Shown here: positions 8,737 through 20,940 of the stretch, piece by piece | Numbering within the stretch: position 1 is the first letter of the stretch | How the letters are laid out: each line of letters starts with the position of its first letter | Virus record (IMG/VR): IMGVR_UViG_3300003583_000001 | Location: 9,943 to 73,942 of that record | Reading direction: 5' to 3' (one strand) | Length of the DNA: 64,000 nucleotides | Origin: a virus | Program-made: the position numbers and the translations under genes | The notes under the pieces: generated by a model | Databases searched by the model: none | Seen by the model: only the letters and a program-made list of their open reading frames with translations | Told to the model about the DNA's origin: nothing

Positions 8737-8812
8737 TGGTGCTGCCACGAGGATTCGAACCCCGGACCTGAGGTTTACAAAACCCCTGCTCTACCGACTG
8801 AGCTATAGCAGC
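8737..8812 (-). tRNA. tRNA-Thr(UGU)
   Basis: GCTGCTATAGCTCAGTCGGTAGAGCAGGGGTTTTGTAAACCTCAGGTCCGGGGTTCGAATCCTCGTGGCAGCACCA; cloverleaf with encoded CCA. Confidence 0.95.
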
Positions 8813-10074
8813 TTAATATTCATATGTGTTAGCATATCGTTTGCTAGGTCACGAAACCAAACGCTATCGTGACCTCGTGTAGTCTCAGCGGCTGTCCCAA
8901 TACGAATACCACTTGTTTCTACAAAAGAGCGTGGATCGTTAGGCACACCATTCTTATTCACTGTGATGCCCTTTGCTTCAAGCATATCTGCTGCATCTCG
9001 ACCAGAACGATTCGTCCCACTGAGATTTAGCAAAACGATATGAGAGTCTGTACCACCAGTCTGTACGTTCATACCTCTGTTAGTGAATACATTACACATC
9101 ACTCTAGCGTTATGAATAACCTGCTGGCTGTATAGTTTAAAGTCATCAGTGTTAGCCTCAATGAACGCTTGTGCTTTTGCAGCAATCATATTCATCAGAG
9201 GTCCGCCCTGTGTGCCAGGAAATATAGCGCTATTTATTTGCTTCGTATAAGATGGGCGGTTCCATAGAATGATGCCGCCTCTGGGACCACGAAGCGTCTT
9301 ATGAGTTGTGCTTGATACTACGTCAGCAAAATCACATGGGTTTTCATAGGCACCACCTGCAATCAAGCCAGAGTAGTGAGCCATATCTACGAATAGATAA
9401 GCGCCAACACTGTCTGCAATCATCCGCATTGCTTCCCAGTCGATTTGTCGAGGATAAGCACTCGCACCAGCAACAATCATCTTTGGCCTGAACTGACCAG
9501 CCTTATCAGATACCTCTTGGTAATCGATGAAGCCATTCTCGTCCACACCATATGAATGTGCTTTGTATATTTTTCCTGAAGCAGTCATTGGCGCACCATG
9601 AGTTAGATGTCCGCCAGAAGCAAGGTCCATACCGAGGATCGTATCACCCGGTTTTAGGAATGCTTGATATACAGCCATGTTAGCATTAGCGCCAGAGTGC
9701 GGCTGTACGTTAGCATACTCACACCCATAGAGTTCTTTCAGTTGGTCAATCGCCAACTGCTCAATCGAATCCATATGCTCACAGCCGTTGTAATAACGCT
9801 TGCCTGGATAACCTTCCGCATACTTGTTTGTAAAGACGCTACCACAGAGTTGCATAACAGCATCACTAGCAAAGTTCTCACTAGCAATCAACTCAATCGT
9901 ATCATTTTGTCTAGTAACCTCACTTGATAAAATTTTATTGACCCTACTGTCAATTCCTGTACCGTGATACATTTCATCTCCATTATCTCTCATAAAGTCC
10001 CAATGCGACAATCGTTTTTCGTTCATTTTAATAGCATTCCAATAAACAGTTAGTAGATCATTATACTTTATCAT
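8803..10074 (-). CDS. glyA: serine hydroxymethyltransferase
   Basis: ELIASENF, NKYAEGYPGKRYY, SSTTHKTLRGPRGG (PLP lysine), GGTDSH, SGIRIGT. Start may be at a downstream Met. Confidence 0.97.
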   Translation of the reverse strand: MIKYNDLLTVYWNAIKMNEKRLSHWDFMRDNGDEMYHGTGIDSRVNKILSSEVTRQNDTIELIASENFASDAVMQLCGSVFTNKYAEGYPGKRYYNGCEHMDSIEQLAIDQLKELYGCEYANVQPHSGANANMAVYQAFLKPGDTILGMDLASGGHLTHGAPMTASGKIYKAHSYGVDENGFIDYQEVSDKAGQFRPKMIVAGASAYPRQIDWEAMRMIADSVGAYLFVDMAHYSGLIAGGAYENPCDFADVVSSTTHKTLRGPRGGIILWNRPSYTKQINSAIFPGTQGGPLMNMIAAKAQAFIEANTDDFKLYSQQVIHNARVMCNVFTNRGMNVQTGGTDSHIVLLNLSGTNRSGRDAADMLEAKGITVNKNGVPNDPRSFVETSGIRIGTAAETTRGHDSVWFRDLANDMLTHMNIKLL

Positions 10075-10302: not shown

Positions 10303-10680
10303 TTAGAATTTAACTGAGGTTGTGAACCCCACAAAAGTATCTTGATATGCAGCGTCACCATCTGTCGTCATTTTAACATATGGCGTTACACCAACATTAA
10401 ACAATTCCAAATTGTATCCAGCTTCAAGTTCAACGCCGGTCAATTCAAACTCATCAACAAGTACTGTTGGCGTTACACCAACATAAATATTATTCCAATC
10501 GACGGTTGCGCTAGGCTCTGCTGTGATTGTGCCTGCATCGATTGCATATGCTACATCATTGCTGAGTGTAAGACCGAGACCATATGGCAATAGACCGCCT
10601 TCTGGTGCTGCTTCGCCATCTGCTAGTGCAGGCGAAGCAAGAAATGCTGTAACTGCTACAGCGGCTAGTAGCTTCTTCAT
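10303..10680 (-). CDS. small exported outer-membrane beta-barrel-like protein
   Basis: Sec signal MKKLLAAVAVTAFLASPALA, alternating beta-strand pattern, terminal Phe (GFTTSVKF). Confidence 0.7.
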   Translation of the reverse strand: MKKLLAAVAVTAFLASPALADGEAAPEGGLLPYGLGLTLSNDVAYAIDAGTITAEPSATVDWNNIYVGVTPTVLVDEFELTGVELEAGYNLELFNVGVTPYVKMTTDGDAAYQDTFVGFTTSVKF

Positions 10681-10704
10681 TTATTTGACTCCTTTAAAGT
10701 TAAA

Positions 10705-10965
10705 AATGACAGGAAGGTCCGAAGACCCCTTCTGTTTCCAAGCGTCCTGTCCCGCTCATAAGAATTATGCTGCTAGAGCATATTCCTGAGAAACGAAATT
10801 ATCGTTTGCATTTAGTTTGTTTTAGTCATATCGTGACCAATCGGTAACTCCAGTCCTCTATTATCTGCATGTCGAAACCTGTTTCGCCCCCATAAGGTTT
10901 ATGGTGGAGGCGTCCGGTACTGCCCCGGAGTCCATTACAGTTTTCAATTTCCTTCATCGTTACTT
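10705..10965 (-). ncRNA. ssrA: circularly permuted (two-piece) tmRNA; tag (A)ANDNFVSQEYALAA
   Basis: Acceptor piece ...CCGGGGCAGTACCGGACGCCTCCACCA ends at 10902; 10-nt spacer; 5' end GGGGGCGAAACAGGTTTCGAC at 10891; 7-bp acceptor stem with G3-U70; tag frame 10809-10765. Outer limits approximate. Confidence 0.95.
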
Positions 10966-11001
10966 CTGTATATATCTAATCCCAAAAGACTAGATATATA
11001 A

Positions 11002-19433: not shown

Positions 19434-19842
19434 TTTTCATCTCACCATCAAGAACAACATACATATAAACAGGACATCCACTCGATTTAATATAAGCACG
19501 ACCACCATCAATCATATTGCCGTTCCCAAACATCTTGTAGTCATGTCGATGGGCACTATACTGTAGATTACCATCATCATCTTCGACACACCCAACCTCC
19601 TGTTTTTCAATCCTATCAGCATTAGTAATCATTAGATTGCCGCTCATTGGATGATAATAAATGCCAAAATACTTGTTACCAAAGTCAGGATGTGGCGTAT
19701 CACGATAGAAGATATCCATCGCTTGTGCTTCGTGTCCTAGTGCAGACGTACACACATACTTGACAGGAACTCCATCTTTCTCTGTATAGTGTTTGCAAAT
19801 CTTATCAGTATCAAATTGTGGTTCGTGTTTAATCATTTTCAA
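19417..19842 (-). CDS. hypothetical protein
   Basis: YSAHRHDY....MIDGGRAY motif. Confidence 0.7.
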   Translation of the reverse strand: MKMIKHEPQFDTDKICKHYTEKDGVPVKYVCTSALGHEAQAMDIFYRDTPHPDFGNKYFGIYYHPMSGNLMITNADRIEKQEVGCVEDDDGNLQYSAHRHDYKMFGNGNMIDGGRAYIKSSGCPVYMYVVLDGEMKNESVD

Positions 19843-20156
19843 TCACTCGTTTTGGCTAGAGCCTTGCGAATCCATTTGACCTTGTAATCCTTACTCCATT
19901 CTCTAAGATAATCATTGTCTTTATCGAACAGTTCCAGCATTTCATCTTCGTTCATGGTAGTAGTGTCTGTAATGTATTCTCCCATATGTTTTTGAGAGAA
20001 CTCTTCACAGTTGTCCTGCGTTACAGTGTCTTCAGCCCATTCAATTGCAGTGCCGTGCAGCTTAGGCAAATCATCCTTATGCATTACATAACGCATACGA
20101 TACGATGAAATACAAGTTACAACAACATAATCTTTTTCTTCTACATTATCAGTCAT
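19839..20156 (-). CDS. hypothetical protein
   Basis: ORF track; EEFSQKHMGE. Confidence 0.7.
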   Translation of the reverse strand: MTDNVEEKDYVVVTCISSYRMRYVMHKDDLPKLHGTAIEWAEDTVTQDNCEEFSQKHMGEYITDTTTMNEDEMLELFDKDNDYLREWSKDYKVKWIRKALAKTSD

Positions 20157-20158
20157 TA

Positions 20159-20524
20159 TTATCTCCTCATCTTTGCTAGTGCTTCAGCATCTTCAGTAGA
20201 AAACACTGGAACCATATTACTCTTGTGCATCGTTGCAATACCAAGTAGCTTACGCTTACCACTATATTGCATAGGTTCTTTTTTCGGTGCCACACCAGTT
20301 GGAATTTGATTAGAAAGCGTGGTGGGCCCGGCAGGATTCGAACCTGCGACAACGCCGTTATGAGCGGCGGGTTCTGACCGCTGAACTACAGGCCCGTTAT
20401 ATCCCATCTTCTTGAGAAACTTTGCATGAGCAGCATCTGTTTGTTGCTGCTTCTTTGACTTCTTCTGTTTTCGCTTCTTCGTACTCGTTGTACTGAAGTA
20501 AGCTGGAAGCATATGCATCGACAT
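20159..20524 (-). CDS. basic hypothetical protein with an in-frame embedded tRNA
   Basis: SD GAGGAG; promoter upstream; C-terminal YSG..LLGIATMHKSNMVPVF...A.MRR motif recalled from T4-like phage hypothetical proteins. Confidence 0.75.
   Translation of the reverse strand: MSMHMLPAYFSTTSTKKRKQKKSKKQQQTDAAHAKFLKKMGYNGPVVQRSEPAAHNGVVAGSNPAGPTTLSNQIPTGVAPKKEPMQYSGKRKLLGIATMHKSNMVPVFSTEDAEALAKMRR
20320..20395 (-). tRNA. tRNA with CAU anticodon, most likely tRNA-Ile2 (lysidine type)
   Basis: GGGCCTGTAGTTCAGCGGTCAGAACCCGCCGCTCATAACGGCGTTGTCGCAGGTTCGAATCCTGCCGGGCCCACCA; G1-C72 pair (not initiator); resembles bacterial Ile2 tRNAs. Confidence 0.88.
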
Positions 20525-20586
20525 CTCTGTTTCTCCTCATTAGTATTATTATATACTATACGAGAAGGGATATAAAGTCAACCTTT

Positions 20587-20940
20587 TTATGAGGGAATTT
20601 TTGGACCTTTATCTGCTGGTTCCGGGAGATTCTTTTTCATATCAAACTCCCACTCTAGTGCTTCATTAATTTCAACAATGAAGCAAGCATATCCTTCAGG
20701 GTCAACACCAAGAACGACCAAATCTTCCTTATGAGAGTATACACCTACGAATATATCACCCTTAGCGGTTTTCGTTAACCCACTTGCAACCAAGACATAA
20801 CCTTCGTCATCAATATACTGTTTAATATCTTTTGTATCGTCACACACCAGATTAACTGGCATGGTAAATATAGCCGATTTTGCGGGGGTTGAAATCATAA
20901 TAACAGCAGCGATAGTAATTGCAGATAGTAATTTAAACAT
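20587..20940 (-). CDS. exported hypothetical protein
   Basis: Signal peptide MFKLLSAITIAAVIMISTPAKS; SD AGGAG. Confidence 0.7.
   Translation of the reverse strand: MFKLLSAITIAAVIMISTPAKSAIFTMPVNLVCDDTKDIKQYIDDEGYVLVASGLTKTAKGDIFVGVYSHKEDLVVLGVDPEGYACFIVEINEALEWEFDMKKNLPEPADKGPKIPS

Follow-up and report, generated by a model that had tools for sequence, protein, structure and literature searches.

The 64,000-nucleotide stretch analysed here (the window) corresponds to positions 9,943 to 73,942 of the IMG/VR virus record IMGVR_UViG_3300003583_000001, and it contains on its minus strand a complete transfer RNA (tRNA) gene lying in frame inside a protein-coding gene. The host gene is a 121-codon open reading frame (ORF) with an ATG start at positions 20159-20524 (stop codon at 20159-20161), predicted to encode a small basic early protein of the PHROG 27048 family. 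The tRNA, a 76-nt tRNA(CAU) with encoded CCA, occupies positions 20320-20395 and was called tRNA-Met(cat) by ARAGORN on the same strand as the ORF. Codon 44 starts at tRNA nucleotide 1, and the tRNA spans residues 44-68 and the first base of codon 69, translating without a stop as GPVVQRSEPAAHNGVVAGSNPAGPT; the segment ..AAHNGVVAGSNPAGPT.. is part of these tRNA-coded residues. The anticodon CAT (20360-20362, minus strand; position 34 in the ARAGORN call) is at the same time the His codon of ..A-H-N.. in the ORF. We consider it probable (roughly 0.8) that the locus is truly dual coding, with a single early transcript acting both as messenger RNA (mRNA) and as tRNA precursor.

The ORF is a real gene, and both parts flanking the tRNA are protein-coding in this frame and are under purifying selection. 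The product matched the PHROG 27048 profile with an E value of 1.1e-14 (residues 1-121 on positions 1-127 of 127), and 714 homologues at E ≤0.01, mostly marine, were obtained in a search of 5.8 billion proteins. The homologue alignment showed a conserved basic N-terminal block, a variable middle and a conserved C-terminal block (..GIATMHKSNMVPVF..MRR), and the C-terminal motif Y-[ST]-G..G-I-A-T-M-H-K-S-N-x-V-P-V...M-R-R-stop was present in the window ORF. Based on alignments, substitution rates and AlphaFold2 models, the N-terminal domain comprises residues 1-43 (MxMHLLP..TTTNTKKRK..HAKFLKKMGY; 20396-20524, minus strand) and the C-terminal domain residues 84-121 (YSGxRKLLGIATMHKSNMVPVF..AKMRR; 20162-20275, minus strand). 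Between the tRNA and the C-terminal domain lies the remaining linker TLSNQIPTGVAPKKE (20276-20319, minus strand), which retains a semi-conserved PTSD.IP.G.A.K-like motif of the tRNA-less relatives. With tblastn, the C-terminal part was matched in Delftia phage PhiW-14 gp114, Acidovorax phage ACP17 and phage C48C1, and in an unannotated ORF of Synechococcus phage BUCT-ZZ01, and none of these four homologues has a tRNA inside. At the place of the tRNA, tRNA-less relatives such as PhiW-14 gp114, ACP17 and many metagenomic members have a variable linker, and in tRNA-less homologues both domains form one protein.

The ratio of nonsynonymous to synonymous substitution rates (dN/dS) was obtained from protein-guided codon alignments of 113 distinct relatives. 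In the ORF frame, the N block had a value of 0.19 and the C block one of 0.27, compared to 1.3-1.6 and 1.3-2.2, respectively (1.3-2.2 overall), when the same columns were read one or two bases out of frame as controls. AlphaFold2 predicted a helix at residues 24-39 (predicted local distance difference test score, pLDDT, of about 90) and a hairpin plus helix at residues 95-120 (pLDDT of about 80), and the tRNA-coded residues were predicted to be disordered (pLDDT of about 50). No start codon or Shine-Dalgarno sequence belonging to the C-terminal domain alone is conserved, and the Met at residue 86 is not conserved either. An initial annotation of the window, which did not place the feature on the minus strand, had described a complete 76-nt tRNA(CAU) with CCA, in frame and on the same strand as the 121-aa ORF, and had argued that the ORF is unlikely to be a shadow and that the locus would be dual coding. 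ARAGORN, Rfam and the ORF listing agree with that description, and the two flanking parts are those of a large family of phage proteins that is under purifying selection. The dual-coding reading holds as well: the alignment of homologues, a check proposed in that annotation, places the tRNA in the variable linker of the family, which it replaces with the frame kept.

The nested tRNAs are also under structural selection. The window tRNA scored 67.3 bits against Rfam RF00005 (gathering score 29; model positions 1-71), and the cloverleaf, with all stems intact, was the minimum-free-energy fold of this tRNA within its mRNA context. Most of the nested tRNAs tested scored 57-75 bits, which is comparable to the free tRNAs of the same phages; lower values were found for the nested Trp tRNAs (40-51 bits) or, taking these together with one odd Thr tRNA, 35-51 bits. 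Among seven distinct sequences of the CAU tRNA, compensatory double changes were present in 6 of 21 pairs and no pair was broken. In the nested tRNA-Pro (25 sequences), compensatory double changes affected 13 of 22 pairs, and broken pairs were almost absent across the two sets. CCA is encoded in nearly all nested tRNAs, and in the CAU orthologues both CCA and the anticodon loop are invariant. The dN/dS of the tRNA segments in the ORF frame was 0.6-1.0, indicating that the constraint is on the RNA and on the absence of stops, not on the peptide.

These results bear on the possibility that the tRNA is a dead copy exapted as linker codons, so that only the protein matters. It would fit the low scores of the nested Trp tRNAs and the finding of a decayed tRNA within an intact ORF at locus L179. 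However, the 67-bit window tRNA has every stem intact and compensatory pairs in its orthologues, its CCA and anticodon loop do not vary, and a dN/dS near 1 with pairing kept is the opposite of what is expected for an exapted peptide; we regard a dead copy as very improbable. The decayed copy is a nested tRNA-Pro at L179:1022-1083 with a 12-nt deletion in the D arm; it scored 38 bits and was missed by ARAGORN, and its host ORF is intact. An argument drawn earlier from the D stem did not stand. The stem is indeed GUUC/GAAC, as had been noted, but all tRNA(CAU) genes of the lineage share it without variation, even those that lie outside the ORF or are read in a different frame, and the canonical GCUC/GAGC makes no stop in this frame either.

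Because protein searches return only open ORFs, DNA of the relatives was fetched with frame-blind queries. The first 43 residues were used as an N-terminus-only query (80 metagenome and 80 viral loci) and the last 42 residues as a C-terminus-only query (80 viral loci). Pooling at an N-terminal hidden Markov model score of at least 40 gave 217 loci with 137 distinct complete ORFs. One or more nested tRNAs were found in 101 of the 137 ORFs and none in the other 36 clade members, and 97 of the 101 tRNA-bearing ORFs read through stop-free to a conserved C-terminus. In the C-terminus-only set, nested tRNAs were present in 5 of 80 loci and all five ORFs were open. The single nested tRNAs were Arg(tct), CAU, Pro(tgg), Ala(tgc), Trp(cca), Thr(tgt) and a UAU tRNA of 93-96 nt, and the nested pairs were Ala+Pro, Arg+Pro, Met+Pro, Arg+Met, Pro+Thr and Ile+Pro. 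In all, 13 tRNA combinations and 37 distinct length states occurred, and the length states were all multiples of three nucleotides; in one case, the peptide alone suggests a possible three-tRNA form (Arg, long-arm UAU and Pro). The gap between the N-terminal domain and the first tRNA was 0-4 nt in 69 of the 97 loci, and neighbouring nested tRNAs were spaced by 2-7 nt.

Among the 97 intact ORFs, 82 carried the C-terminal type of the window and 15 a second module (..AYNKGG..GKRR). The latter (..IGQAYNKGG.QVLS...DP.TGKRR) forms the C-terminal 40 codons of L224, L256, L180, L193 and L326; it is itself conserved and stands behind the same N-terminal domain and slot, in place of GIATMHKSN..MRR. L326 is the cultured phage Melnitz, in which a tRNA-Trp at positions 1389-1462 lies in frame within gene 124, followed by the second module. 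The UAU tRNAs found in the slot at L027:2652-2747, L243:1152-1247 and L265:1131-1223 (57-59 bits with Rfam) have a long variable arm of about 26 nt, and such a class-II-like arm is unusual on an AUA-reading tRNA. Some phages have additional tRNAs immediately next to the family gene, on its upstream or its downstream side (L104:877-952, L120:647-801 and L180:1476-1721), and the slot may be an extension of a neighbouring tRNA cluster.

Two of the four exceptions, the metagenome contigs L166 and L202, change to GC-rich, bacterial-looking DNA after or inside the tRNA and are most likely chimeric assemblies. The switch occurs after position 294 in L166 and after about position 1200 in L202, and the parts were probably joined through the conserved tRNA sequence. 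Chimeras of this type are a trap when broken genes are counted. The other two exceptions, L243 and L309, are considered below.

The frame in use was always stop-free, and it was often the sole stop-free frame of the three. By comparison, the mean fraction of open frames in the non-nested tRNAs of the same loci was 0.295, and 24 of 69 had none. An unselected insertion would be expected to keep the ORF in roughly 0.1 of cases (0.295 times one third, a rough estimate), and the 97 of 101 observed is therefore more than chance. On a tree of the flanking domains, the tRNA combination changed at least 39 times, with a floor of 12 changes whatever the tree. These findings show that, while tRNAs were gained, lost and swapped many times, the frame was kept and stayed open.

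They also argue against the view that the ORF is untranslated across the tRNA, that its halves act separately or not at all, and that the open frame is a coincidence or goes back to one lucky ancestor. The GC-rich tRNA does have few stops in some frames, the loci share ancestry, and translation is only inferred. Nevertheless, 13 combinations and 37 length states that all keep a stop-free multiple of three are set against a null of about 0.1 per insertion; the C-terminal domain, which has no conserved start of its own, is under purifying selection in precisely this frame; and tRNA-less homologues have the two domains in one protein. We consider that view very unlikely, though slightly less so than a dead tRNA copy.

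The closest free copies of tRNA(CAU), 77 nt long and located downstream of the family gene (L179:1431-1507, L181:1558-1634 and L183:876-952), contain stops in all three frames. The nested versions of 76 and 78 nt are open, differ from the free copies mainly in D-loop length, and have an anticodon loop that reads ..A-H-N... In this small sample, it looks as if the ORF constrains the tRNA. A splicing-like model, in which the tRNA would be excised and the mRNA halves rejoined, was rejected: the tRNA lengths of 74, 76, 77 and 79 nt are mostly not multiples of three, and since 76 is not, excision would break the frame, so that read-through is what is conserved. The nested Trp tRNAs have A8; avoidance of a stop at U8-A9-G10 is not claimed for them, since the same position is variable in free phage Trp tRNAs as well.

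With regard to expression, the Shine-Dalgarno sequence GAGGAG, read from the sequence, is located at 20533-20538 (minus strand), 8 nt 5' of the ATG. A consensus scan placed sigma-70-like promoters at 20548-20581 (minus strand; TTGACT-17-TAGTAT and an overlapping TTTATA-17-TATAAT), and promoter-like sites in the region were not more numerous than in shuffled sequences. Hence, of the promoter and Shine-Dalgarno sequence assigned to the ORF in the initial annotation, the latter is present and the former is a candidate only. From the 20548-20581 region and the ATG to the tRNA, a simple consensus scan found no further promoter-like site on the minus strand. The tRNA therefore most likely comes from the ORF's own transcript, and its processing must cut the mRNA. 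The scan reported no terminator-like site on the minus strand between 19300 and 21700, and the next gene (105 aa; 19839-20156, minus strand) is in the same transcription unit, with its ATG 2 nt past the stop codon of the tRNA-bearing ORF. Contigs from RNA libraries of three studies span the tRNA and both flanks (20065-20622, 20227-20443 and 20180-20424) and provide a weak hint of an unprocessed transcript. A peak in RNA-library depth over the T arm stems from tRNAs of other organisms, and a lack of coverage elsewhere is uninformative.

Several points weigh against dual coding. The RNA-library contigs may be DNA contamination, and one of them extends past the putative promoter on its upstream side. 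Production of both the protein and the mature tRNA is inferred from the sequence. The loci are related, so that 97 of 101 are not independent trials, and the tree on which changes were counted is weak, as it rests on about 85 residues. Moreover, one tRNA-bearing ORF (L243) stops just past the tRNA, with loss of the C-terminal domain, and in another (L309) the C-terminal domain is shifted into a different frame by an insertion of about 430 nt. About a sixth of the intact cases carry the second C-terminal module, for which homology to the window type is not demonstrable; a common origin of the two types was unsupported by hhalign (E = 0.066). Finally, no fold or family match suggests a function for the protein, and hence a functional reason for the slot. 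Pfam gave no match for the protein or its neighbours, Foldseek gave none against the PDB, and ESM Atlas provided no useful lead. The insert in L309 (L309:1203-1780) is located between a nested tRNA-Arg and the C-terminal domain.

The dual-coding explanation that we favour would operate as follows. In the early protein, a basic N-terminal helix and a C-terminal hairpin-helix, both conserved, would be connected by a linker that is disordered and tolerates sequence change. In one marine T4-like phage clade, tRNA genes would have come to occupy a slot at the start of this linker. Any stop-free insert of a multiple of three nucleotides would be tolerated by the linker, and tRNAs could in this way be gained, lost and swapped. 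The early promoter would give rise to one transcript. Ribosomes loading at the Shine-Dalgarno sequence would translate through the tRNA and make the full-length protein, and RNase P together with 3'-end nucleases would excise the tRNA from the same transcript, ending the use of that mRNA for the ORF. The same DNA would be under double selection, for the cloverleaf and for a stop-free stretch of a multiple of three nucleotides. The strict either/or between protein and tRNA drawn in the initial annotation would not be needed, as a transcript could be translated first and processed later. The ratio of protein to tRNA would then be set by a race between translation and processing, not by a dedicated switch.

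A processing-controlled switch or timer, in which maturation of the tRNA purposely shuts off the early protein and perhaps the downstream operon, is the alternative to such a race, and a switch of this kind was suggested as a possibility in the initial annotation. RNase P would leave a 43-codon mRNA without a stop codon, and ribosomes stalled on it would be rescued by the transfer-messenger RNA (tmRNA) of the phage. The tRNA offset of 0-4 nt in 69 of 97 loci would put the RNase P cut almost exactly at the domain border, the window has a permuted tmRNA at 10674-10996, and the stop codon of a serine hydroxymethyltransferase (SHMT) gene in the same window lies within a tRNA-Thr. In Melnitz, too, a tmRNA (PMC9004378) accompanies a nested tRNA, and a similar trade-off has been proposed for selB/selC (Mukai 2021, PMC8124441). 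In contrast, tRNA identity is swapped freely and 36 clade members are tRNA-less, which fits a tolerated passenger better, and a tmRNA is present in only 17 of 47 related contigs (PMC9004378). We consider a purposeful switch unlikely. Equally doubtful is a regulatory device in which the host's RNase P, by cutting exactly where the N-terminal domain ends, would make a non-stop mRNA of the first cistron in an early operon, the phage tmRNA would clear its product and tRNA maturation would thereby time the shut-off of the early protein, or in which the basic protein acts on tRNA processing with feedback on its own mRNA.

The isotype of the tRNA(CAU) was examined from its identity elements. Positions 1 and 72 are paired (G1-C72 in the window and A1-U72 in relatives), which shows that it is not an initiator. 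The pairs C4:G69 and C5:G68 are invariant in all seven CAU variants; these acceptor pairs are determinants for TilS in E. coli, although this may not apply to the TilS of this phage's host. The only full-length E. coli matches were genes annotated as tRNA-Ile (34 genomes), and the similarity was weak (73.7% identity, E = 4e-3). Similar genes in phage records are named tRNA-Met, by anticodon. ATA accounted for 12 per 1000 codons in the window. We lean somewhat towards an AUA-reading tRNA-Ile2 rather than a tRNA-Met.

The window comes from a T4-like phage of marine origin. It encodes PhoH, a Cas4-like exonuclease and SHMT, as well as three further tRNAs and a permuted tmRNA in two pieces; a megablast search of the region against phages returned no match. 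A second overlap of a tRNA with a coding sequence was found at the SHMT gene (glyA-like, PF00464; 8803-10074, minus strand), which ends inside the tRNA-Thr(tgt) at 8737-8812 (minus strand). The last 10 nt of the SHMT ORF are nucleotides 1-10 of the tRNA, and its TAG stop is U8-A9-G10, so that RNase P cleavage would remove the stop codon. The tmRNA, on the minus strand, is circularly permuted; it scored 106 bits with the Rfam tmRNA_permuted model and has the tag ANDNFVSQEYALAA. Melnitz-type phages have been reported to carry such a tmRNA (PMC9004378). A link between the tmRNA and non-stop fragments arising from tRNA excision is speculation.

The arrangement is common in abundant ocean phages. 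Standard phage annotation takes an overlap of a tRNA and an ORF as an error and discards one of the two, but here both appear to be real. The locus offers a natural example of nucleotides under selection for RNA structure and for coding at once, and the cost to each side can be read directly, as only tRNAs and D-loop lengths giving a stop-free frame are admitted. It bears on the packing and exchange of phage tRNAs, on processing versus translation on one transcript and on the handling of overlaps between tRNAs and coding sequences by gene callers. Melnitz on the OM43 strain H5P1 is a cultured pair with the same layout and the same family, and with a different C-terminal module, which makes the arrangement testable at the bench.

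Mixed transcription units of tRNAs and mRNA are represented by the thrU-tyrU-glyT-thrT-tufB operon of E. coli and by the tRNA cluster of T4. There, as at this locus, a single transcript gives rise to tRNAs and mRNA, which RNase P and further nucleases cut apart, and the 2-7 nt spacing of the nested tRNAs resembles that of phage tRNA clusters. In those units, however, the tRNAs lie between ORFs, whereas here they lie inside one. The T4 genes beside the tRNA cluster (trna.2-.4) were considered as relatives of the family and were found to be unrelated. A tmRNA likewise joins a tRNA fold and translated codons in one transcript, but its two functions are in separate segments, whereas here the same nucleotides serve both. 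In animal mitochondria, whole tRNAs overlap coding sequence on the same strand in genomes under compaction pressure, as with the tRNA-Lys inside cox1 of Armadillidium vulgare (cited in PMC8124441). The mitochondrial case involves reduced tRNAs and a single fixed overlap, in contrast to the full-size canonical tRNAs with encoded CCA that are swapped across this phage clade.

A literature search found no phage report of tRNAs nested in ORFs. The Melnitz paper lists the tRNA-Trp of that phage and does not mention its overlap with a gene (PMC9004378). The nearest report is the bioinformatic prediction of selC, the gene for tRNA-Sec, nested in the selB ORF of Alphaproteobacteria (Mukai 2021, Int J Mol Sci 22:4605, PMC8124441), which was called the first nested tRNA in a bacterial ORF and was presented along with mitochondrial cases. 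In both systems a whole sense-strand tRNA is read in frame, a remnant is found in some relatives (the decayed tRNA-Pro of L179 resembles the tRNA remnant in S. meliloti selB described by Mukai), and processing would stop production of the full-length protein. In selB/selC, one specific tRNA lies in the C-terminal extension of its binding protein on bacterial chromosomes. The present slot differs in that it is an internal linker between two conserved domains of a phage gene and takes at least seven interchangeable kinds of tRNA, one or two at a time. The interchange of Arg, Pro, Ala, CAU, Trp, Thr and UAU tRNAs, together with the 36 tRNA-less members, indicates that there is no tRNA-specific link to the protein. 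These findings show that the window locus is mechanically like the selB case and is not a member of that system.
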